Position numbers and translations under genes: made by a program. 64,000 bases of DNA, taken from the NCBI GenBank assembly GCA_040879645.1, contig JBBDJY010000016.1, forward strand, positions 11,064 to 75,063. Direction: 5' to 3'. The notes under the pieces are model-generated. The model was given only the letters and a program-made list of their open reading frames with translations. It was not told the DNA's origin and ran no database searches. Shown one piece after another: positions 4,956 to 48,964 of the stretch. The DNA comes from Minisyncoccota bacterium. Lineage in GTDB: Bacteria > Patescibacteriota > Minisyncoccia > Phycocordibacterales > XYD1-FULL-46-19. The stretch's first letter is position 1. Each line of letters begins with the position of its first letter.

Positions 4956-5134
4956 GTCGAGGTTGAACCTCGACCAATGTTTGTACCCCCGAAGCCAACG
5001 GCTTCGGGGGTTTTCTTTTTTCAAATCGAGATGGGCCGGTCTTTAAAGCTTTAGTCGAGGTTGAACCTCAATACCGAGGTTTAACCTCGTTATTGAACCT
5101 CGTTATTGAGTGTTGGTCGAGGTTGAACCTCGAC
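4956..5134. repeat. REP cluster: GTCGAGGTTGAACCTCGAC and ATACCGAGGTTTAACCTCGGTAT palindromes (at least four copies)
   Basis: Perfect and near-perfect 19-23-bp palindromes read directly; same family at 6969-7093, 13257-13322, 13711-13809, 34630-34648 and 35337-35398. Confidence 0.85.
4985..5020 (+). terminator. Rho-independent terminator (cccccgaagccaacggcttcggggg followed by T-run)
   Basis: GC-rich hairpin plus T-tract directly after the PASTA gene stop. Confidence 0.6.
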
Positions 5135-6927: not shown

Positions 6928-6968
6928 CTAATGCCAGGCGGATCTTGGTGGCTTGCCTCCTGGAGTCA

Positions 6969-7093
6969 ATACCGAGGTTTAACCTCGGTATTGACGTTAT
7001 ATTTAGCCACGATAACGAGGTTAAACCTCGGTATTGAGTATTAGTCGAGGTTGAACCTCGACCTAGTCATTAATCGAGGTTAAACCTCAATCA
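6969..7093. repeat. REP cluster (four palindromes of the GAGGTT-AACCTC family)
   Basis: Direct reading; intergenic between murB and gatB. Confidence 0.85.
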
Positions 7094-7146: not shown

Positions 7147-8625
7147 ATGCAAGCGATGGCAAAATCAGAGTACAAATTAACCGTCGGTTTGGAAATTCAC
7201 GCCGAATTAAAAACGCGAACCAAGATGTTTTGTCAGTCGGCCAATGATTCGGATGAGAAGCGGCCGAATGTCAATATTTGCCCGATTTGTTTGGGTCATC
7301 CCGGTACCTTGCCGGTGATTAATAAAGCGGCGGTGCGGTCAGTCCTTTTGGTCGGCCACGCGCTTGGTGGCCGTTTGGCCGACTTTACCGAATTTGACCG
7401 CAAAAACTATTTTTATCCCGATATTCCCAAGGGCTATCAAATCAGTCAGTACAAATACCCCTTGGTGGCCGGCGGCGAATTGGCCGGGGTGCAAATTACC
7501 CGCATTCACTTGGAAGAAGATACCGCCCGATCGCAACACGACCCTAAAACCGGCGAGAGTTTGGTTGATTTTAATCGGGCCGGTGTGCCGTTAATGGAAT
7601 TAGTCACCGAACCGGTGATTAAAAATGCCAAACAAGCTGGCGATTTTGCCCGCGAATTAAAATTACTGCTTGGGCCGGAATATTTAAATGTTTCGGCCGC
7701 CAATTTGGAAAAAGGCGAAATGCGGGTGGAAGCCAATATTTCGGTCAGTACCAATGACTATCTCGGGACCAAGGTGGAGGTTAAAAACCTTAATTCTTTT
7801 CGAGCGGTGGAAAAAGCGATTGACTATGAATTTGCCCGCCAGCGGGATTTACTGGCATCCGGCGGAACGGTCGTCCAAGAGACGCGAGGTTGGGACGAAA
7901 ACAACCAACAAACTTTCAGTCAACGGCAAAAAGAAATGTCTCATGATTATCGCTACTTTCCCGATCCCGATTTACCCAAATTAAAATTAAGCGCCGTGCC
8001 CGAATTAACCGCTTTGGCGGATTCTTTGCCGGAATTGCCGGCCGAAAAAAGCCGGCGTTTTCACGCCGATTACGGTCTTAAGGCCGAAGATATTAAAGTC
8101 ATCATCGCCAGTGCCAAATTAAGTGCTTGGTTTGAAGAGGTGGTTGGTCAAATGCCCGTCCGACCGGGTCATCCGGGCGGGCCCGCCGACGCGGAGAAAA
8201 ACCGTCTGGCGCAAACCGCCGCCAATTATATTGTTTCCGATTTGACCGGATTGTTGGCCGGTGATTTTAGTCGTTTGCCGTCGCCGGCCAACTTGGCCGA
8301 ATTGATGTTAATGATTAAGGACGGACAAGTGTCGTCTCGTGGAGCCAAAGATATTTTATCGTTAATGATTGCTGACAATCGATCGCCGCAAGCCATCGCC
8401 GAGGCCGAAAACTTATTCCAAAAAAGTGATCAGACCGAATTAACAGTGATTATTGAAAAGGTCATTGCCGACCAACCGGCGGTGGTCGCCGATTTTCGCG
8501 GTGGCAATGACAAGGTATTGCAATTTTTAATCGGCCAAGGAATGAAAGAGTCCAAAGGGACGGCTAATCCGGCGGTGCTGGCCAAAATGTTTATTGAGTC
8601 GATAAAAAAATCGACCGATAAATAA
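7147..8625 (+). CDS. gatB: Asp/Glu-tRNA(Asn/Gln) amidotransferase subunit B; carries an in-frame insertion of about 16 aa from a GC-rich palindromic element at 8154-8190
   Basis: LEIHAELKT..ICPICLGHPGTLPV GatB signature; ORF runs from 7120, likely start MQAMAKS at 7147. Confidence 0.9.
   Translation: MQAMAKSEYKLTVGLEIHAELKTRTKMFCQSANDSDEKRPNVNICPICLGHPGTLPVINKAAVRSVLLVGHALGGRLADFTEFDRKNYFYPDIPKGYQISQYKYPLVAGGELAGVQITRIHLEEDTARSQHDPKTGESLVDFNRAGVPLMELVTEPVIKNAKQAGDFARELKLLLGPEYLNVSAANLEKGEMRVEANISVSTNDYLGTKVEVKNLNSFRAVEKAIDYEFARQRDLLASGGTVVQETRGWDENNQQTFSQRQKEMSHDYRYFPDPDLPKLKLSAVPELTALADSLPELPAEKSRRFHADYGLKAEDIKVIIASAKLSAWFEEVVGQMPVRPGHPGGPADAEKNRLAQTAANYIVSDLTGLLAGDFSRLPSPANLAELMLMIKDGQVSSRGAKDILSLMIADNRSPQAIAEAENLFQKSDQTELTVIIEKVIADQPAVVADFRGGNDKVLQFLIGQGMKESKGTANPAVLAKMFIESIKKSTDK
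8154..8190. repeat. GC-rich palindromic element copy E1 (GCCCGTCCGACCGGGTCATCCGGGCGGGCCCGCCGAC) inside the gatB CDS, in frame
   Basis: Near-identical to the reverse complement of 26728-26770 and to 48185-48213. Confidence 0.8.
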
Positions 8626-17546: not shown

Positions 17547-17921
17547 CGGTTGGACAGAATATGGAAACTGTCCTGCTCTAGTTATTACCCACCAATATCC
17601 AAGAGTCTTGTTCTTGATTGATATTGGTTTTGTGCGTGGGGTTCCTGTAAAGGAAGTCGTCTTTCGCTCAAGCACAATAAGAGCGATTGACCAAGCCGTT
17701 GCCGACAACAAGACTACGACAACGGCCATTGATTTAATTATATCTCACTCGCTGTCAATTTCAAGGGCTTTTATTAGACTTCTGGTTTTTTCATTTCCGG
17801 CCCCGAACCTCCGTCTTTGACCGGCACAAATACCACAAGCGATTTTAGAATGTTTTCTTTTTCGTTTGTAGTTCATTTAATAATTGTAAAAGAAAATGCC
17901 TACCGTTGCCAATAGTAAATG

Positions 17922-17946
17922 TTATCAAACACCGGGTGTTTGATAA
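17922..17946. repeat. Left flanking palindrome TTATCAAACACCGGGTGTTTGATAA of the RAYT at 17925-18596
   Basis: Perfect palindrome; near-identical copy at 18626-18650. Confidence 0.8.
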
Positions 17947-18596
17947 TCTTCTTTAGCGCCACTGGTTTCAACCCATTTTTTATAACTTTGGCCGGGGTTT
18001 GGCCCGTCCATTTGGTCCATGATTATTTTGGGTTTAAGTAATTCGCCCCAACGATTTTCATTGGTGTAGTCGCTAAAACTTGACCAACGATATTCTGTTT
18101 CTCGATTATTATAGTCAATCTCCCTTGCGTTTAAGTGGACGTAGGCCGAAGCATAAAGTAATTGCTCATTGTCTTTAATGTGAACAGCGCGAAAAGGTCC
18201 TTGAAAAAGGTGTCCAGATTGTTGATATCTGGTATTGAAATACTTGGTATAACCGTTAAGAATCTTTTGCATGTAGGTGGAAACTCCGTTATCCACATTT
18301 GATTGGACAATCAAATGAAAATGGTTCGGCATCAAACAAAAGGCGATCAATGTCACTAGACGATTTTCGATGAGGGTTTCAATGTCTTGATGGTTAAAGC
18401 CGAAATTGTTTTCTTTTATAAATTTTTTTGCATGCGATCCGATATTATTGATACTGCGGGCTGATTGTAAATGAAGAATATACAATAAAAATCTGGCACG
18501 ATCTAAGTCATCTTTAAAGATATCGCATTTAAGGTTTCCTCGGTTAACTAAGTGAAAATATTCACCGGCGACAAAAGGAGTTTTTCGATAAGTCAT
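17925..18596 (-). CDS. REP-associated tyrosine transposase (RAYT; IS200/IS605 TnpA-like HUH Y1 transposase)
   Basis: HUH motif NHFHLIVQ, C-terminal RWSSFSDY tyrosine region, N-terminal YHLVNRG motif. Confidence 0.8.
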   Translation of the reverse strand: MTYRKTPFVAGEYFHLVNRGNLKCDIFKDDLDRARFLLYILHLQSARSINNIGSHAKKFIKENNFGFNHQDIETLIENRLVTLIAFCLMPNHFHLIVQSNVDNGVSTYMQKILNGYTKYFNTRYQQSGHLFQGPFRAVHIKDNEQLLYASAYVHLNAREIDYNNRETEYRWSSFSDYTNENRWGELLKPKIIMDQMDGPNPGQSYKKWVETSGAKEDYQTPGV

Positions 18597-18625
18597 GATA
18601 TTTCAATCATACCATACAATCCCGA

Positions 18626-18650
18626 TTATCAAACACCCGGTGTTTGATAA
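18626..18650. repeat. Right flanking palindrome TTATCAAACACCCGGTGTTTGATAA of the RAYT
   Basis: Direct reading. Confidence 0.8.
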
Positions 18651-18742
18651 CAAGTTTATAAACATATGAGACTCTGTAATTAAGAATTCATATGTGTCAA
18701 AATCATTGACTTTTGGTTGTTTTTGGCTATACTGCATTTGTT

Positions 18743-24003: not shown

Positions 24004-24076
24004 GCCAGCATAGCTCAGTTGGTAGAGCAACGGTTTTGTAAACCGTAGGTCGTGGGTTCGAATCCCTCTGCTGGCT
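24004..24076 (+). tRNA. tRNA-Thr (anticodon TGT)
   Basis: Cloverleaf read by eye: acceptor GCCAGCA/TGCTGGC, D-arm GCTC..GAGC, anticodon stem ACGGT/ACCGT with loop TTTGTAA, T-arm GTGGGTTCGAATCCC; no encoded CCA. Confidence 0.8.
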
Positions 24077-24530
24077 CACAAACAAAGAGCCGAAAGCGGA
24101 TGCTTTCGGCGATTATTGTTTGTGCCAGTAGAGGGATGAGAACGGCGGAGCGCGCGAAGCCGACCGAGTGGTAACGAGGTCGAGCGCGAGCCGTGTCCCG
24201 CGGCACTTCATATTTTGTGAGTGGAATGAAACAAAATATGTTAGTGACCGTCAGGACGAATCCCCAGCTTCCTCACAAACAAAGAGCCGAAAGCGGATGC
24301 TTTCGGCGATTATTGTTTGTGCCAGTAGAGGGATGAGAACGGCGGAGCGCGCGAAGCCGACCGAGTGGTAACGAGGTCGAGCGCGAGCCGTGTCCCGCGG
24401 CACTTCATATTTTGTGAGTGGAATGAAACAAAATATGTTAGTGACCGTCAGGACGAATCCCCAGCTTCCTCACAAACAAAGAGCCCTCGGCGGATGCTTT
24501 CGGCGATTATTGTTTGCCCACGGACTGGAA
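24077..24530 (+). repeat. Tandem direct repeat: two complete 197-bp units plus a partial third immediately 3' of tRNA-Thr; each unit ends in a degenerate copy of the tRNA 3' end (pseudo-att)
   Basis: Units start at 24077, 24274 and 24471 (period 197); the ORFs at 24168..24371 and 24365..24568 are artefacts of this repeat. Confidence 0.85.
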
Positions 24531-25607
24531 AAAGTCAGAATCTGTTACTGGTCTCGATTCTATCATAAAATCATTCCATTTCATGCTAAAATGAGTAGAT
24601 GAAGAAAAATAATATTATCATCTATCAAGCTAAATCAGGTGCTCTTGAGTTCAAGAGTGATTTGAAAGAAGATACTATTTGGGCATCACAAATCCAAATA
24701 GCCGAGGCTTTTAAGGTAAATGTTCGTACAGTAAACGAACATATAATAAACATTTACAAAACAAAAGAACTATTTAAGAAAGGAACTATCCGGAAATTCC
24801 GGATAGTTCAAAAAGAAGGAAACAGAGAAATTTCTCGTGATATCCAGCACTATAACTTAGACATTATTTTGTCAGTTGGATATAGAGTTAACTCAAAAAA
24901 AGCAACTAAGTTTAGGCAATGGGCCACCAAAACCCTTAAAGACCATTTAGTTAAAGGATATACGATAAATCGAAAAAGAATCGATAAAAACTATCTTGAG
25001 TTTTTAAGATCAGTCGAAGAAGTTAAAAAACTTCTTCCCCAAGGGAATACCCTGTCAACAAAAGATACCTTGGAGCTAATCAAATTCTTTGCCGGCACTT
25101 GGCTTTCTCTGGAGGCCTACGATAAATCAACATTTTCTAAACAGGGCCTAACTAAAAAACAAGTCAAAATCACAGCCGATGAATTGGAGAACGCTATTGT
25201 CGATTTACGGCATAATCTAATCTCACAAAAAGAAACGACGGACATCTTTGCTCAAGAAAAATCAACCGGTTCCATTGCTGGCATTGTGGGGAATGTATTC
25301 CAAGGTTTTAATGGTAAAAACCTCTATCCAACCGTAGAAGAAAAGGCCGCCCATCTTTTATATTTTATAGTCAAAAACCACCCCTTTATTGATGGAAACA
25401 AGCGAAGTGGAGCTTTTGCTTTTGTTTGGTTTTTGAACAAAGCCGGTATTTTAAATAGAGATAGTTTTACTCCCGAAGCATTAACGGCTTTAACAATTTT
25501 AGTGGCTGAGAGTAATCCGAGTGATAAAGAAAAAGTTGTTGGTTTGATTTTGAATTTATTAAGGTGATTTAACTTTTTATTCAATCCCAAATGATTGCCC
25601 CATTCTG
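24521..25607 (+). mobile_element. tRNA-Thr-associated islet bounded by about 45-bp direct repeats (24471-24520 and 25608-25650, both with the ccctcggcggatgctttcggc variant), carrying only a RhuM-Fic/Doc gene
   Basis: Direct repeats read directly; AT-rich cargo; no integrase present. Confidence 0.55.
24599..25567 (+). CDS. RhuM-family virulence-like protein fused to a C-terminal Fic/Doc domain (HPFIDGNKRSG motif)
   Basis: N-terminal RhuM-like pattern (IIYQ..NLDIILSVGYRVNSKKATKFRQWAT); C-terminal Fic/Doc motif HxFx(D)GNKR. Confidence 0.7.
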   Translation: MKKNNIIIYQAKSGALEFKSDLKEDTIWASQIQIAEAFKVNVRTVNEHIINIYKTKELFKKGTIRKFRIVQKEGNREISRDIQHYNLDIILSVGYRVNSKKATKFRQWATKTLKDHLVKGYTINRKRIDKNYLEFLRSVEEVKKLLPQGNTLSTKDTLELIKFFAGTWLSLEAYDKSTFSKQGLTKKQVKITADELENAIVDLRHNLISQKETTDIFAQEKSTGSIAGIVGNVFQGFNGKNLYPTVEEKAAHLLYFIVKNHPFIDGNKRSGAFAFVWFLNKAGILNRDSFTPEALTALTILVAESNPSDKEKVVGLILNLLR

Positions 25608-25654
25608 AATCTTCAGCTTCCTCACAAACAAAAGCCCTCGGCGGATGCTTTCGG

Positions 25655-26035
25655 CTACTTTTTATTTAAGTCAATCAGTTTTTTCAAATCCAGATCAATG
25701 TCCCCGGTTGAATCCAAATGCCGAGGGAAAAGGCTGTCATTAACAATATCATCACTACCCTGTGGTAAAACAAATACATTGCCACTTTCTGGATATTTAC
25801 CAAAAACAATTTTTAATCCCTCTGCTTGAAACCGAGTAATGAGTTCGTCTATCGGGGTTCCGTATCCGGGCAGTTCTTCTTGTTCCGCCTTTATTATTTC
25901 ATATGAATTTGGGTCGATACCGGGAAAAGGAAAATTTTCCTGATTTTCCGCCATTAGTTTTTCGACAAGTAAAATATATTCTTGTTTTCGTCGCTCTTTT
26001 TCCTGTTCAGGTGATGGGTTGGGAAATGATTCCAT
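25655..26035 (-). CDS. Hypothetical protein (126 aa)
   Basis: ORF only; adjacent to the islet boundary repeat. Confidence 0.4.
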   Translation of the reverse strand: MESFPNPSPEQEKERRKQEYILLVEKLMAENQENFPFPGIDPNSYEIIKAEQEELPGYGTPIDELITRFQAEGLKIVFGKYPESGNVFVLPQGSDDIVNDSLFPRHLDSTGDIDLDLKKLIDLNKK

Positions 26036-26154: not shown

Positions 26155-26982
26155 ATGATAGACAAAGCCGAACAACCGTCAAAATTGGGTCATCTTCATC
26201 CGAATAGTCAGATTATTTACGAGGTCTATGACTTAATGCGTCAGCTTGGCTTTAGTGTCGCTCTGGGGCCGGAAGTGGAAACCGAATTCTATAATTTTGA
26301 CGCTTTAAATATTCCACCGGATCATCCGGCTCGGGATATGCAGGATACTTTTTGGCTTAAGGCTCCGCCCGGTCTGCCCGGTCGGGCAGGCCCGTCCGAC
26401 CAAGCAGACCGGCCTGATGACCGTCTCTTGCGGACCCATACCAGTCCGGTCCAGATTCGCTATATGCAAGAGCATCAGCCGCCGTTTCGGATTATTGCGC
26501 CGGGGAGGGTTTTTCGTAATGAAGCGACCGATGCCACCCACGAAGCCCAGTTCCACCAGGTGGAAGGCTTAATGGTTGATCGGGATGTTTCTTTAAGTCA
26601 CTTGAAGGGGACATTAGAGTTTTTACTCAAAGGGTTGTTTGGTGATGATGTCCGTTTGCGCTTGCGTCCGAGTTTCTTTTCTTTTGTTGAGCCGGGTTTG
26701 GAAGTGGATATTTCTTGTTTTCGTTGCGGCGGACGGGCCCGCCCGGATGACTCGGTCGGACGGGCCCGTCATTGTATCTTATGCAAACAAACCGGCTGGA
26801 TAGAGGTTTTGGGTGCCGGCTTGGTCCATCCCAATGTTCTCTCGGCTGGGGGGTTAGACCCGAATGAGTGGCGCGGTTTTGCCTTTGGGGTCGGTGTTGA
26901 CCGCTTATCAATGCTTCGTTACGGCGTGGATGATGTCCGCTTGTTTTATGCCGGCGATATTCGTTTTATCAATCAATTTTAA
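26155..26982 (+). CDS. pheS: Phenylalanine--tRNA ligase alpha subunit, N-terminally truncated form, with two in-frame GC-rich palindromic insertions
   Basis: FNFDALNIPPDHPARDMQDTFW..LLRTHTSPVQ motifs; starts at the position equivalent to about residue 100 of canonical PheS; -10 box TATAAT upstream. Confidence 0.85.
   Translation: MIDKAEQPSKLGHLHPNSQIIYEVYDLMRQLGFSVALGPEVETEFYNFDALNIPPDHPARDMQDTFWLKAPPGLPGRAGPSDQADRPDDRLLRTHTSPVQIRYMQEHQPPFRIIAPGRVFRNEATDATHEAQFHQVEGLMVDRDVSLSHLKGTLEFLLKGLFGDDVRLRLRPSFFSFVEPGLEVDISCFRCGGRARPDDSVGRARHCILCKQTGWIEVLGAGLVHPNVLSAGGLDPNEWRGFAFGVGVDRLSMLRYGVDDVRLFYAGDIRFINQF
26371..26410. repeat. GC-rich palindromic element copy E3 (nested palindrome ggtctgcccggtcgggcaggcccgtccgaccaagcagacc) in frame in pheS
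   Basis: Inserts about 15 aa (PPGLPGRAGPSDQADRPDDR) between the conserved DTFW and LLRTHTS motifs. Confidence 0.7.
26728..26770. repeat. GC-rich palindromic element copy E4 (reverse-orientation match to the gatB copy) in frame in pheS
   Basis: Reverse complement GGCCCGTCCGACCGAGTCATCCGGGCGGGCCCGTCCGCC is about 95% identical to 8154-8190; inserts RARPDDSVGRAR into the CFxCGG..CxxCK zinc-knuckle region. Confidence 0.8.
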
Positions 26983-34629: not shown

Positions 34630-34648
34630 AGTCGAGGTTGAACCTCGA
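34630..34648. repeat. REP palindrome GTCGAGGTTGAACCTCGAC upstream of the RAYT
   Basis: Direct reading. Confidence 0.85.
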
Positions 34649-34676: not shown

Positions 34677-35423
34677 ATGAGCCGAAATTTTTCTTTCTCT
34701 ATTGATGAGTTCTATCACCTGTATAATCGTGGTAACGATAAGAGGGATATTTTTCTTGATTATCTAGATAGGGAGAGATTTTTAAAATTACTCTATCTTT
34801 GTAATGGTAAAAATGAATTTCATATTCAAAAAATTCTTGACGAGGAACTTTTTTATTTTAATCGAGGTGAGTCTATCGTTGATATTGGAGCTTATTGTTT
34901 GATGGATAATCATTATCATTTATTGGTTAAAGAAAAGATGGAAAATGGCATCAGTCTTTTTATGCAACGATTATCAACGGCATATTCTATGTATTTTAAT
35001 AAAAAACACGATAGAACAGGCGCTTTGTTTGCCGGTCGTTTTAAGGCCAAACATCTTGATGACGATGACTATTTAAAGTATATTTTTGCTTATATTCATT
35101 TAAATCCGATTAAAATAGTTGATGATTTTAGTTGGAAATCCGGAATAGTAAATGATCTGGAAAAGATTAAAAAACATTTGAGCGATTATCGTTATTCGAG
35201 TTACCAAGATTATCTGGAGATCAATCGAGCAGAAACAAGAATCCTGAATAAAGAATCCTTTCCGGAATATTTTGATGATGTTGAAGATTTTAAAAATTAT
35301 CTAGATGATTGGATCAATTACCGAAGAGAAGAATTAGTCGAGGTTGAACCTCGACCAACAAAGGGTCATTCAATCAACAGTCGAGGTTCAACCTCGACTA
35401 GAGTTCTTTCGCTGATTCGATAA
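34677..35423 (+). CDS. REP-associated tyrosine transposase (RAYT), second copy; its 3' end runs into a REP doublet
   Basis: HUH motif NHYHLLVKE; YRYSSYQDY tyrosine region; N-terminal YHLYNRG. Confidence 0.8.
35337..35398. repeat. REP doublet (GTCGAGGTTGAACCTCGAC ... GTCGAGGTTCAACCTCGAC) overlapping the RAYT 3' end and containing the dnaE stop codon
   Basis: Direct reading. Confidence 0.85.
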
Positions 35424-47749: not shown

Positions 47750-48088
47750 ATGGCAGAGAAACACCAAGACCAGGAATTTTTAGAGACAATTGTCAAAATG
47801 TTGGTTGATCATCCCCAAGACGTTGTTGTTGACCGCAAGGTTGATGAAATGGGCGTCTTGATGACTTTGGATGTCAATCCGGAAGATATGGGCAAGATTA
47901 TCGGCCGCCAAGGTAATACCGCCAAGGCGATCCGAACTTTATTACGAGTTGTCGGAATGAAGAATAATGCTCGAGTCAATTTGAAGATTAACGAACCGCC
48001 GGGAGGCTCACCGGTCAAGCGCGAAGAAAAAGAGACGATTTCAACTTCTCAATCGGTTGATCAGGCGATGAACGATTTGAAACTTTAA
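47750..48088 (+). CDS. KH-domain RNA-binding protein (UPF0109/YlqC-like)
   Basis: KH GxxG motif IIGRQGNTAKAIRTL; conserved position after rpsP. Confidence 0.8.
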   Translation: MAEKHQDQEFLETIVKMLVDHPQDVVVDRKVDEMGVLMTLDVNPEDMGKIIGRQGNTAKAIRTLLRVVGMKNNARVNLKINEPPGGSPVKREEKETISTSQSVDQAMNDLKL

Positions 48089-48184: not shown

Positions 48185-48213
48185 GGGCCCATCCGACCGG
48201 GTCATCCGGGCGG
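48185..48213. repeat. GC-rich palindromic element copy E2 (gggcccatccgaccgggtcatccgggcgg), intergenic
   Basis: Shares the core CCGACCGGGTCATCCGGGCGG exactly with the gatB copy. Confidence 0.8.
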
Positions 48214-48264
48214 ATAGGGATTGGCGAATATTTGTTTTATTGCTATCTTAAAATTATTAAAGAT

Positions 48265-48909
48265 ATGACCACTTTTCACCTCATCAGTATTTTCCCCAAG
48301 AGCTTCACTTCCTACATTGAATGCTCGATCATCGCTCGGGCGATTAAGGCAAAAAAGATTGCCGTCAAATTTTATGATCCGCGAGATTATACCGCCGACA
48401 AGCATCGTTCGGTTGACGACCGACCTTATGGCGGGGGGCCGGGAATGGTGATGTCGGCCGAGCCGATTATTTTGGCGGCTCGGGCGGCTCGTTGGCGCCG
48501 ACCAAAAGCCAAAGTTTATTTACTGGCAACGACCGGCAAACAATTTACCAATCAATTAGCCGGTCGCTTGGCTAAGAAAAATGAAGATATCATCATTATT
48601 TGCGGCCGGTATGAAGGCATTGATGCTCGAGTGAAGAAAATTTTGCGGGCCGAATATTTAACTATCGGTCCCTATGTGTTGACCGGCGGCGAATTGCCGG
48701 CTTTGGTGGTGATTGATGCTATCGCTCGACAAATTCCCGGTGTCTTGGGTAAAACCGAATCGCTTGAAGAGAGTCGGCCGGCCGGGCGAGAAGTTTATAC
48801 TCGACCGGAAGTGATGGTGATTGACGGTAAAAATTATCGCGTACCGAAAGTGTTATTATCCGGCGATCACAAAAAAATCACCGACTGGCGACAAAAGCGC
48901 CATCGGTAA
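48265..48909 (+). CDS. trmD: tRNA (guanine37-N1)-methyltransferase
   Basis: MTTFHLISIFPKSF..YGGGPGMVM motifs; ORF from 48139. Confidence 0.9.
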   Translation: MTTFHLISIFPKSFTSYIECSIIARAIKAKKIAVKFYDPRDYTADKHRSVDDRPYGGGPGMVMSAEPIILAARAARWRRPKAKVYLLATTGKQFTNQLAGRLAKKNEDIIIICGRYEGIDARVKKILRAEYLTIGPYVLTGGELPALVVIDAIARQIPGVLGKTESLEESRPAGREVYTRPEVMVIDGKNYRVPKVLLSGDHKKITDWRQKRHR

Positions 48910-48916
48910 AACCACA

Positions 48917-48964
48917 GGCTTTTTGTTTGTTCGATTAAGGCCGGAATTTTGTCAAGGTGTCACC
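48917..48964. promoter_or_regulatory. Conserved intergenic module copy 1 (GGCTTTTTGTTTGT..GGAATTTTGTCAAGGTGTCACC; half palindrome)
   Basis: About 80% identical to the modules at 52513-52560 and 54550-54603. Confidence 0.6.

Follow-up and report, generated by a model that had tools for sequence, protein, structure and literature searches.

What are the short GC-rich palindromes that lie in frame within gatB and pheS, two essential translation genes of a Minisyncoccota bacterium (Patescibacteriota), and how did they get there? We addressed this question in a stretch of 64,000 nt from this organism (GenBank assembly GCA_040879645.1, contig JBBDJY010000016.1, positions 11,064 to 75,063), hereafter called the window, whose GC content is 40-52%. 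A preliminary description of the same DNA had reported a family of elements of about 40 bp, inserted in frame in gatB and pheS and also present upstream of trmD, and had likened them to Rickettsia palindromic elements (RPEs). Our analysis supports this central reading, i.e., small palindromes in frame in essential genes and between genes that behave like RPEs, and adds features that were absent from it: a unit of nine codons, insertion without target duplication, a reading-frame bias, and a distribution across phyla that reaches essential genes of the Candidate Phyla Radiation (CPR). With a probability of about 0.6, we conclude that the palindromes belong to a family of non-autonomous mobile hairpins of 27 nt, similar to repetitive extragenic palindromic (REP) sequences, which are translated when they reside in genes and are probably moved by an HUH/Y1 enzyme that we infer from the mode of insertion.

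A 22-nt core, TCCGACCGRGTCATCCGGGCGG, occurs exactly three times in the window, at 8159-8180 (+) in gatB, 26739-26760 (-) in pheS, and 48192-48213 (+) upstream of trmD, and was matched in none of 100 dinucleotide-preserving shuffles. In BLAST alignments, the gatB copy was identical to the pheS copy at 31 of 32 positions and to the trmD-upstream copy at 26 of 27; the similarity of the latter to the other copies extends over 27-29 nt. These three copies accounted for the shared core of the preliminary description, but its fourth member, at 26371-26410 in pheS, has only 12-13 contiguous bases in common with them (E 0.06-0.24). The copies, the stretch that we did not count, and the two host genes are as follows.

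8155 to 8181, + strand: canonical unit CCCGTCCGACCGGGTCATCCGGGCGGG in gatB, with an exact core and 0 mismatches to the consensus
26738 to 26764, - strand: canonical unit with A at position 13, in pheS, 0 mismatches
48188 to 48214, + strand: variant unit CCCATCCGACCGGGTCATCCGGGCGGA (G4A, G27A), intergenic, 2 mismatches
26364 to 26390, - strand: probable degenerate unit CCTGCCCGACCGGGCAGACCGGGCGGA, left half of the pheS site-1 palindrome, 7 mismatches (about 0.1 expected per window)
26391 to 26417, + strand: probable degenerate unit CCCGTCCGACCAAGCAGACCGGCCTGA, right half of the pheS site-1 palindrome, 8 mismatches (about 0.6 expected per window)
191 to 217, - strand: stretch not counted in the family, 8 mismatches, which is the chance level, and no stable fold (z-score +0.32)
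7147 to 8625, + strand: gatB, Asp/Glu-tRNA amidotransferase subunit B; its homologues contain PF02934 and PF02637 and bear the name GatB in their source records
26155 to 26982, + strand: pheS, short CPR-type phenylalanine-tRNA ligase alpha subunit with insertions at two sites, 100% identical to P0001

The stretch at 191-217 corresponds to the degenerate relative that had been proposed at 200-232, and a match of its quality is expected by chance 0.6 times per window. The length of about 40 bp also had to be revised to 27 nt: the pheS copy seems longer, as its flanks extend the stem to 14 bp, and the adjacent bases 26765-26770 (CCCGTC) repeat the start of the forward unit.

The consensus unit, CCCGTCCGACCGNGTCATCCGGGCGGG, is a hairpin of exactly 27 nt with a GC content of 81% (22 of 27 bases). 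In the RNA minimum-energy fold, the arms CCCGTCCG and CGGGCGGG form an 8-bp stem of G·C and G·T pairs only, closed by a conserved loop of 11 nt; as DNA, the unit can fold alternatively into an inner CCGG/CCGG stem that encloses a GTCAT loop. The copies in the window gave RNA folds of -24 to -36 kcal/mol over stretches of 51-66 nt, and the DNA folds of the pheS copy at 26738 (-17.9 kcal/mol, z -3.23) and of the copy at 48188 (z -2.75) were also stable. Because trmD starts at 48265 (MTTFHL...; Pfam tRNA_m1G_MT), the 48188 copy is intergenic, as had been described; it lies 50 nt upstream of that start and downstream of a KhpA-like KH-domain gene (47750-48088). Its paired changes, G4A and G27A, were also found together in a Chitinophagales locus (L056). 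A search of Rfam 15 at gathering and permissive thresholds gave no family for the 27-mer and matched only tRNAs in the window and six carrier loci; around the 48188 copy, only sub-threshold, terminator-like matches were obtained.

At pheS site 1, the two degenerate units are directly adjacent and inverted, together comprising 54 nt (18 codons, 71% GC) with folds of -18.4 kcal/mol as DNA (z -3.04) and -35.9 kcal/mol as RNA (z -3.30). The first 11 bases of the right unit (26391-26417) are the same as those of the consensus. Judged by sequence, site 1 is probably a decayed head-to-head dimer of two 27-mers. The GCAGACCGG variant of this site had eight matches in JGI metagenomes, all of which were chance matches in high-GC coding sequence (contigs of 57-73% GC).

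To place the element beyond the window, we scanned one genome per species of GTDB with a 21-nt core and obtained at least 118 loci, among which the proportions of taxa may be skewed. Including the three copies of the window, there were 125 matches (122 in the at least 118 loci), and 103 of them had the full 27-mer between unrelated AT-rich flanks. The copy counts given below for the profile and for the reading frames refer to the matches listed. In a profile of 101 copies, position 13 (G 78, A 15, T 6, C 2) was the sole freely varying position, and both its G and A alleles are present in the window. The six other positions left free by the scan pattern were 93-100% conserved, an estimate inflated by the 20 exact bases that the pattern demands. 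The family implicit in the preliminary description, confined to one genome, gave way to one found mainly in Bacteroidota, and the unusual trait of the 27-mer is that it is nearly unchanged across several phyla.

The aligned matches have sharp boundaries at 27 nt, outside which the AT-rich flanks are unrelated to each other. A C directly preceded the unit in 70 of 101 copies and directly followed it in 77, and the left flank had the profile H-H-H-C, being A/T-rich and G-poor. The flanking direct repeat never exceeded 1 nt in 91 of the 101 copies. In four loci, the 27-mer splits a tandem repeat of its host (CCACAAA in L043, CCAGCAA in L047, CTCAAC in L028, and CTCAATG in L013), and excision of exactly 27 nt rejoined each of these repeats perfectly. 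We considered target duplications of 4-7 bp and rejected them: the apparent flanking repeats are host tandem repeats divided by the insertion. A family of Chitinophagaceae histidine kinases gave the corresponding view at the protein level. Among 120 homologues (72-83% identical to the query), 112 have no nonapeptide, and nearly all of these read ...KVETKEGEGTTF or end ...KVETKEGEGTTFIIQLP, or have a close variant; in seven others this place is occupied by KVETKE[ARPDDPVGR]GEGTTF or a version that differs in one residue. Since the tandem repeats are restored and histidine-kinase homologues exist without the nonapeptide, the unit must be 27 nt long, with the C's on either side counted as part of the target. 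Taken together, these alignments indicate that the unit is inserted as a whole, without target-site duplication and mostly at C^C.

We next consider the behavior of the unit inside genes. A unit of 27 nt equals nine codons, and of its six frames only the one with TGA is closed; intragenic insertions therefore keep the frame and add a nonapeptide rich in Pro, Gly, Asp, and Arg. About half of the copies are intragenic, 51 of 95 non-redundant copies residing in open reading frames (ORFs) of at least 600 nt. None of the 51 uses the TGA frame (P ~9e-5), and 38 (75%) share a single orientation and frame, in which ARPDDPVGR is followed by G and a Gly codon is split (G^GN); tested against equal use of the five open frames, this preference has P ~8e-17. 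In most cases K, D, E, or N precedes the insert, so the insertion sites look like turn motifs. In the histidine kinases, P0309 and P0311 have the nonapeptide pattern located elsewhere in the protein, and decayed versions such as P0257 and P0322 are still in frame; a PDB alignment of the histidine-kinase tail ended before the insert. Because the stop frame is unused and decayed copies remain in frame, the segment appears to be translated rather than removed, which argues that intragenic copies become part of the protein and that selection removes harmful ones. The single-frame bias could reflect the choice of target (C^C with an A/T-rich, G-poor left flank), strand coupling, or tolerance of the peptide.

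A second palindrome occurs in the same histidine-kinase loop. It is GC-rich, about 21 nt long (CCTGCCTGACCGGCAGGCAGG), encodes GLPAGQAG-like peptides, and sometimes stands beside the 27-mer (L009/L112; P0272, P0273, P0277, P0322, P0356). There seem to be several in-frame hairpin families in Bacteroidota.

Translation of the window DNA confirmed an in-frame position for the copies in gatB and pheS, at the places given in the preliminary description. The gatB insert encodes PVRPGHPGG, residues 337-345 counted from Met at 7147 (context GQMPVRPGHPGGPADAE), and the 26738 insert of pheS adds ARPDDSVGR to the CxxC...CxxC zinc knuckle, at its tip (context CFRCGGRARPDDSVGRARHCILCK). The GatB nonapeptide was absent from all 15 non-identical homologues aligned (62-70% identity), and present in an identical partial GatB (P0121) from an independent Logan assembly. 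The window PheS is 100% identical to P0001, which NCBI names as PheS of Candidatus Paceibacterota; its closest homologues, 60-73% identical, are missing the extra residues at both sites. The closest of them, P0002 (73% identical), reads DTFWLNPLTAGKLLRTHTS at site 1 and CFKCRGAGCALCK at the zinc knuckle, and its DNA has no hairpin at either place. The absence of the extra residues from the nearest GatB and PheS homologues (65-73% identical) was the outcome expected in the preliminary description for an insertion. The NCBI and Logan assemblies of the organism are concordant, and the Logan contigs lie inside the window except for about 0.4 kb beyond its 3' end.

AlphaFold2 models built on the homologue alignments predicted the GatB insert as coil between helices 323-334 and 346-370, with a predicted local distance difference test (pLDDT) score below 50 at residues 339-343. 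PheS site 1 was likewise coil (pLDDT 46-59, and below 50 at residues 75-84), and the zinc-knuckle insert was modeled with moderate confidence (pLDDT ~79) as a loop or beta-hairpin. The three inserts of the window are thus predicted to lie in turns or loops, namely, the GatB inter-helix linker, the tip of the PheS zinc knuckle, and the linker between PheS motifs 1 and 2.

Other Paceibacterota pheS genes (L119 = P0008, L120 = P0029, L121 = P0025) have unrelated or distantly related palindromic inserts in the same two loops. In P0008, the zinc knuckle contains a hairpin of 42 nt that is built on the same CCCGYCCG/CGGGCGGG stem in the opposite orientation, and site 1 of P0008 (L119) and P0029 (L120) has the form GCCCGAC[hairpin]GGGC. 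Because other Paceibacterota have palindromes there, these PheS loops are recurrent landing sites.

Most carriers of the 27-mer are Bacteroidota (about 93 of the at least 118 loci), including Chitinophagaceae and relatives, Sphingobacteriales, Saprospirales, Cyclobacteriaceae, and some Bacteroidales. Six loci belong to anammox bacteria or other Planctomycetota, three to CPR bacteria (one Saccharibacteria metagenome-assembled genome with two loci, and one Peribacteraceae), and two are unclassified. The matches listed include five cultured carriers: Niastella soli, Niabella hibiscisoli, Terrimonas sp. R1, Arthrospiribacter ruber, and Algoriphagus aquimarinus. In the same loci, a search for secondary copies without the exact-match filter found 11 inexact versus 4 exact ones. 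Three orthologous pairs of loci (L038/L106, L046/L095, and L007/L109) retain a unit identical at 26-27 of 27 positions between 150-nt flanks that are 66-88% identical.

The remaining 14 loci, from Actinomycetota, Vicinamibacterales, Nitrospira, and Chloroflexota, were rejected as family members, being ordinary coding matches without the CCCGT/G ends, most of them visibly high in GC. Five of them (L035, L088, L091, L101, and L115) are identical copies of a repeated gene on one Vicinamibacterales chromosome, containing the 21-nt core by chance and no CCCGT/G ends; as this example shows, high-GC genomes give false positives for the pattern. One unclassified bacterium (L079) has four copies at 228-407 and 2669-2689, one with 1 mismatch; three lie within 180 bp between genes, beside an rsmA/ksgA-like ORF, with no transposase visible in the locus.

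Which enzyme might move such a unit? HUH/Y1 enzymes of the "peel-and-paste" type, known from the IS200/IS605 and REP/RAYT systems, recognize hairpins, leave no duplication, and favor single-stranded targets such as hairpin loops. The 27-mer was itself found in the loops of other hairpins in four anammox loci (L021, L045, L084, and L116), in terminator-like stems (L002, L057, and L117), and at the CGGG^CCCG center in pheS. A single-strand HUH/Y1 mechanism fits the element because there is no duplication, the hairpin has a conserved loop, and the unit is inserted into the loops of other hairpins. We therefore propose the 27-mer as a non-autonomous, REP-like mobile hairpin, which would move as single-stranded DNA, probably through a trans-acting HUH/Y1 enzyme (of IS200 or REP-associated tyrosine transposase (RAYT) type) by peel-and-paste; it probably entered the Paceibacterota lineage horizontally, from or together with Bacteroidota. 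The window encodes two proteins of the relevant class.

34677 to 35423, + strand: Y1/HUH (IS200-like, RAYT-like) transposase gene, Pfam Y1_Tnp 40.8 bits (cutoff 23)
17925 to 18596, - strand: second Y1/HUH transposase-like gene, Pfam Y1_Tnp 37.9 bits, product 38% identical to the 34677-35423 protein

The first protein has the HUH motif DNHYHLL and the Y motif YIHLNP, and its best NCBIfam match was REP-associated tyrosine transposase (42 bits, under the cutoff of 80). Its gene is bracketed by the palindrome GTCGAGGTTSAACCTCGAC at 34631, 35337, and 35380. The second gene is flanked by perfect 29-nt inverted repeats (17920-17948 and 18624-18652), each with the palindrome ATCAAACACCSGGTGTTTGAT (17924 and 18628). 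Both proteins are candidate trans-acting enzymes only.

The anammox loci deserve separate mention. In L021, L045, and L084, a GTAG-tagged REP holds the 27-mer in its loop (GTAGGGTGGATTA[27-mer]...GAATCCACC), and L116 has the same GTGGATTA...AATCCAC stem with no GTAG tag; the hosts of the four loci are Scalindua, Brocadiaceae, or Planctomycetota. When all loci were searched by regular expression for HUH and Y motifs, Y1-like genes turned up solely in the window, L045, and L116, in no case next to the 27-mer; in L045 and L116 they lie 3-6 kb from it. In these anammox loci, the 27-mer could be hitch-hiking on a RAYT-mobilized repeat.

Several observations weigh against a mobile hairpin moved by such an enzyme. 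Each Y1 gene of the window has its own AT-richer palindromes, and neither is flanked by the 27-mer. All-against-all clustering of 906 ORFs from the carrier loci retained for this comparison revealed no recurrent neighbor except the host histidine kinases and common families. The usual substrates of transposition, REPIN dimers and the ends of IS200/IS605 elements, are longer than a single 27-nt hairpin. No real match was found among IMG/VR viral contigs, INPHARED phages, or PLSDB plasmids, so these collections offered no vector for spread between phyla. A search of JGI metagenomes for the empty gatB site as predicted, GGTCAAATG|CCCGCCGACGCGG, gave no match, and mobility is deduced from protein comparisons at 60-83% identity, with no strain-level empty site recovered. 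The single-frame bias is stronger than tolerance of any open frame would account for. Finally, the conservation of the unit in the three orthologous pairs could reflect constraint at the nucleotide level, gene conversion, or re-insertion, in a comparison that the exact-match scan biases.

These last points are those on which a different explanation would build, namely, that the 27-mer serves as a DNA or RNA signal under selection (for protein binding, uptake or recombination, or mRNA structure), kept by purifying selection or gene conversion, with its spread a by-product. Near-invariance across phyla, free variation confined to position 13, conservation of the loop in addition to the stem, the orthologous pairs in which the unit is kept while the flanks diverged, and the strong orientation and frame bias would all suit a signal. 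Against this stands an all-or-none block of 27 nt whose sites are scattered and non-homologous (tandem repeats and other hairpins among them), with no fixed position relative to genes and about half of the copies within them. Moreover, the conservation on which the argument relies is inflated by the requirement for 20 exact bases, the secondary copies found without this filter are mostly decayed, and no Rfam family matched. We consider a signal unlikely, although it is the alternative we take most seriously. A quite different possibility is removal or bypass of the hairpin at the RNA level, as a mini-intron or in the manner of the yeast "byp" elements, such that it never appears in the protein. 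The great stability of the RNA hairpins, and the unusual introns in rRNA and tRNA genes of CPR bacteria, speak for it. Removal would, however, free the element from constraints on length and frame, yet the unit is exactly nine codons long, the stop frame is never used among the 51 copies in long ORFs, and decayed intragenic copies (P0257, P0322, and the 54 nt of pheS site 1) are still in frame, leaving this account very improbable.

The segments of GatB and PheS could also be native, lineage-specific extensions of loops, with coincidental or convergent nucleotide similarity. The same loops do vary in length in PheS of Paceibacterota (P0007, P0008, P0010, P0020, P0025, P0029, and P0032) and in GatB (P0154), and even minus the 27-mer, GatB is 4 residues and PheS 2 residues longer than the closest relatives. 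The variable loops of the relatives hold other palindromes, however, a sign that insertion was repeated and that native drift is not the cause. The copies in gatB and pheS lie in opposite orientations, encode different peptides, and match the consensus exactly, except at position 13; over 80 copies from unrelated genes in other phyla match it likewise, and the shuffled sequences contained not one core match; native extension is thereby effectively refuted. The copies might also be suspected of having arisen artificially in sequencing, assembly, or binning (through a hairpin adaptor or linker, a chimera, or a mis-binned Bacteroidota contig), since most carriers are metagenome-assembled genomes and a GC-rich hairpin could be an oligonucleotide. 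Yet five cultured isolates, sequenced by different groups, carry the element; it is shorter than a read, it lies in frame in CPR-type genes whose best homologues are from Paceibacterota, and the NCBI and Logan assemblies agree. The avoidance of the stop frame and the placement in Gly codons are biological signatures, and decayed copies exist, which reduces an artefact to a negligible chance. The mobile hairpin accordingly remains our preferred reading. A bolder form of it would see a "codon-neutral" hairpin transposon that is currently active and spreads horizontally, counts among the smallest known units of mobile DNA, uses a widely shared single-strand enzyme, prefers Gly codons of surface turns, and repeatedly remodels protein loops, essential translation enzymes included, in minimal CPR genomes, Bacteroidota, and anammox bacteria; we put this forward tentatively, as possible but doubtful.

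How does the 27-mer compare with known systems? RPEs (RPE-1 to RPE-8) lie in frame in essential genes, including those for tRNA-related enzymes, and between genes, and have no transposase of their own; RPE-1 is about 100-150 bp long, AT-rich like its host, and confined to Rickettsia. The 27-mer resembles them in lying in frame in gatB and pheS and between genes upstream of trmD, and in adding a peptide while the protein is kept. The likeness drawn in the preliminary description is borne out by the same 27 nt in unrelated contexts, by relatives without the residues, and by the kept frame, as an analogy of behavior and not as membership: by its description, 27 nt at 81% GC in Paceibacterota, Bacteroidota, Planctomycetota, and other CPR bacteria, the 27-mer is set apart. 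The GC clusters of yeast mitochondria and the byp elements are short GC-rich palindromes in an AT-richer genome, sometimes in protein-coding genes, and byp elements are bypassed by the ribosome. The 27-mer is similarly short, GC-rich, and palindromic in an AT-richer genome, but it is bacterial and its frame statistics indicate normal translation. Miniature inverted-repeat transposable elements (Correia, Nezha) are non-autonomous, high in copy number, and sometimes intragenic; they measure 100-400 bp and have terminal inverted repeats and target-site duplications, unlike the 27-mer, which is a single 27-nt hairpin with no duplication (as noted above, a flanking repeat never longer than 1 nt in 91 of 101 copies).

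A typical REP family is inherited vertically within one species or genus. With GTAG-tagged REPs and the REPIN-RAYT system, the 27-mer shares a short, imperfect palindrome, many dispersed copies, and the lack of target-site duplication, and the window has two hairpin-flanked HUH/Y1 enzymes in a REPtron-like arrangement. In contrast to that system, there is no GTAG in the 101-copy profile, the 27-mer flanks no RAYT, and it crosses phyla. For Bacteroidetes, separate RAYT subclasses with "atypical" hairpins have been described (PMC6006769). Small intragenic REPs, GTAG- and CGTC-tagged and including RPE-4 and RPE-6, are known in several phyla, also in tRNA synthetase genes, and RPE-4 and RPE-6 are described as CGTC repeats (Di Nocera et al. 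2013, PMC3733652). CGTC repeats have no dedicated transposase and are found in five phyla, Bacteroidetes among them (PMC3733652). They are short single hairpins of 20-40 nt, with an unpaired CGTC (TGTC/CCTC) tag, stems of 8-9 bp starting with A·T, loops of 4-5 nt, and a CCA tail, and occur mostly as extragenic head-to-head dimers (PMC3733652). The 27-mer likewise is a short single hairpin with an 8-bp stem and intragenic copies. It contains CGTC at positions 3-6, which is paired in the minimum-energy RNA fold and partly unpaired in the alternative DNA fold. It differs in a stem without A·T pairs, an 11-nt loop, C...C flanks, and the lack of a CCA tail, and in being mostly a singleton with about half of its copies intragenic. 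A text search of 8 million papers found none with the 27-mer sequence, which is not proof of its being undescribed, and keyword searches led only to general work on REPs, RPEs, and miniature inverted-repeat elements. The 27-mer is a very small addition to the REP/RPE kind, apparently undescribed, and not a new category.

If the mobile-hairpin reading is true, even the smallest genomes, those of CPR/Patescibacteria, are open to selfish hairpins that invade essential genes, and a single 27-nt sequence can cross phylum boundaries. It would also give a simple account of some of the loop insertions that set CPR and Bacteroidota proteins apart from their homologues, and a natural experiment on the protein sites that tolerate a fixed nonapeptide. 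The near-invariant 27-mer would be a practical marker for finding the enzyme that moves "orphan" REP-like repeats, a question raised since CGTC repeats were described without a transposase (PMC3733652). In annotation, ARPDDPVGR would then have to be read as the footprint of an element and not as a protein motif.

The window contains further repeats. A hairpin family, (T)TAGTCGAGGTTGAACCTCGACYA, has eight copies with up to 3 mismatches versus 0.06 expected: five, at 4956, 5054, 5116, 7044, and 7073, cluster in intergenic regions near 5 kb and just upstream of gatB, and three lie at the Y1 gene of 34677-35423. An AT-rich palindrome family, ATACCGAGGTTWAACCTCGGTAT, is found at 5071, 6969, 7012, 13257, 13300, 13711, and 13754, often in pairs 20 nt apart that resemble REPIN dimers. 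Another palindrome family, TTTTGTCAAGGTGWCACCTTGACAAAA, occurs at gene ends (2503, 2548, 40526, and 54578, and partially at 48946) and may be a terminator or operator-like site. Logan short-read contigs apparently break at the palindrome cluster 6966-7091 (L132 ends at ~6994, and the P0121 contig starts inside gatB), which suggests that the repeats of this cluster fragment assemblies of the genome. Positions 24065-24516, starting at the tRNA-Thr (24004-24077) 3' end, hold about 2.3 copies of a 197-nt tandem repeat (93-98% identity), and a related piece lies at 25607-25662. Positions 745-1255 of the ORF 301-2484 contain coding tandem repeats with a period of about 75 nt, Gly-rich (...GGNGGGG...), and the product is probably a repetitive surface protein.

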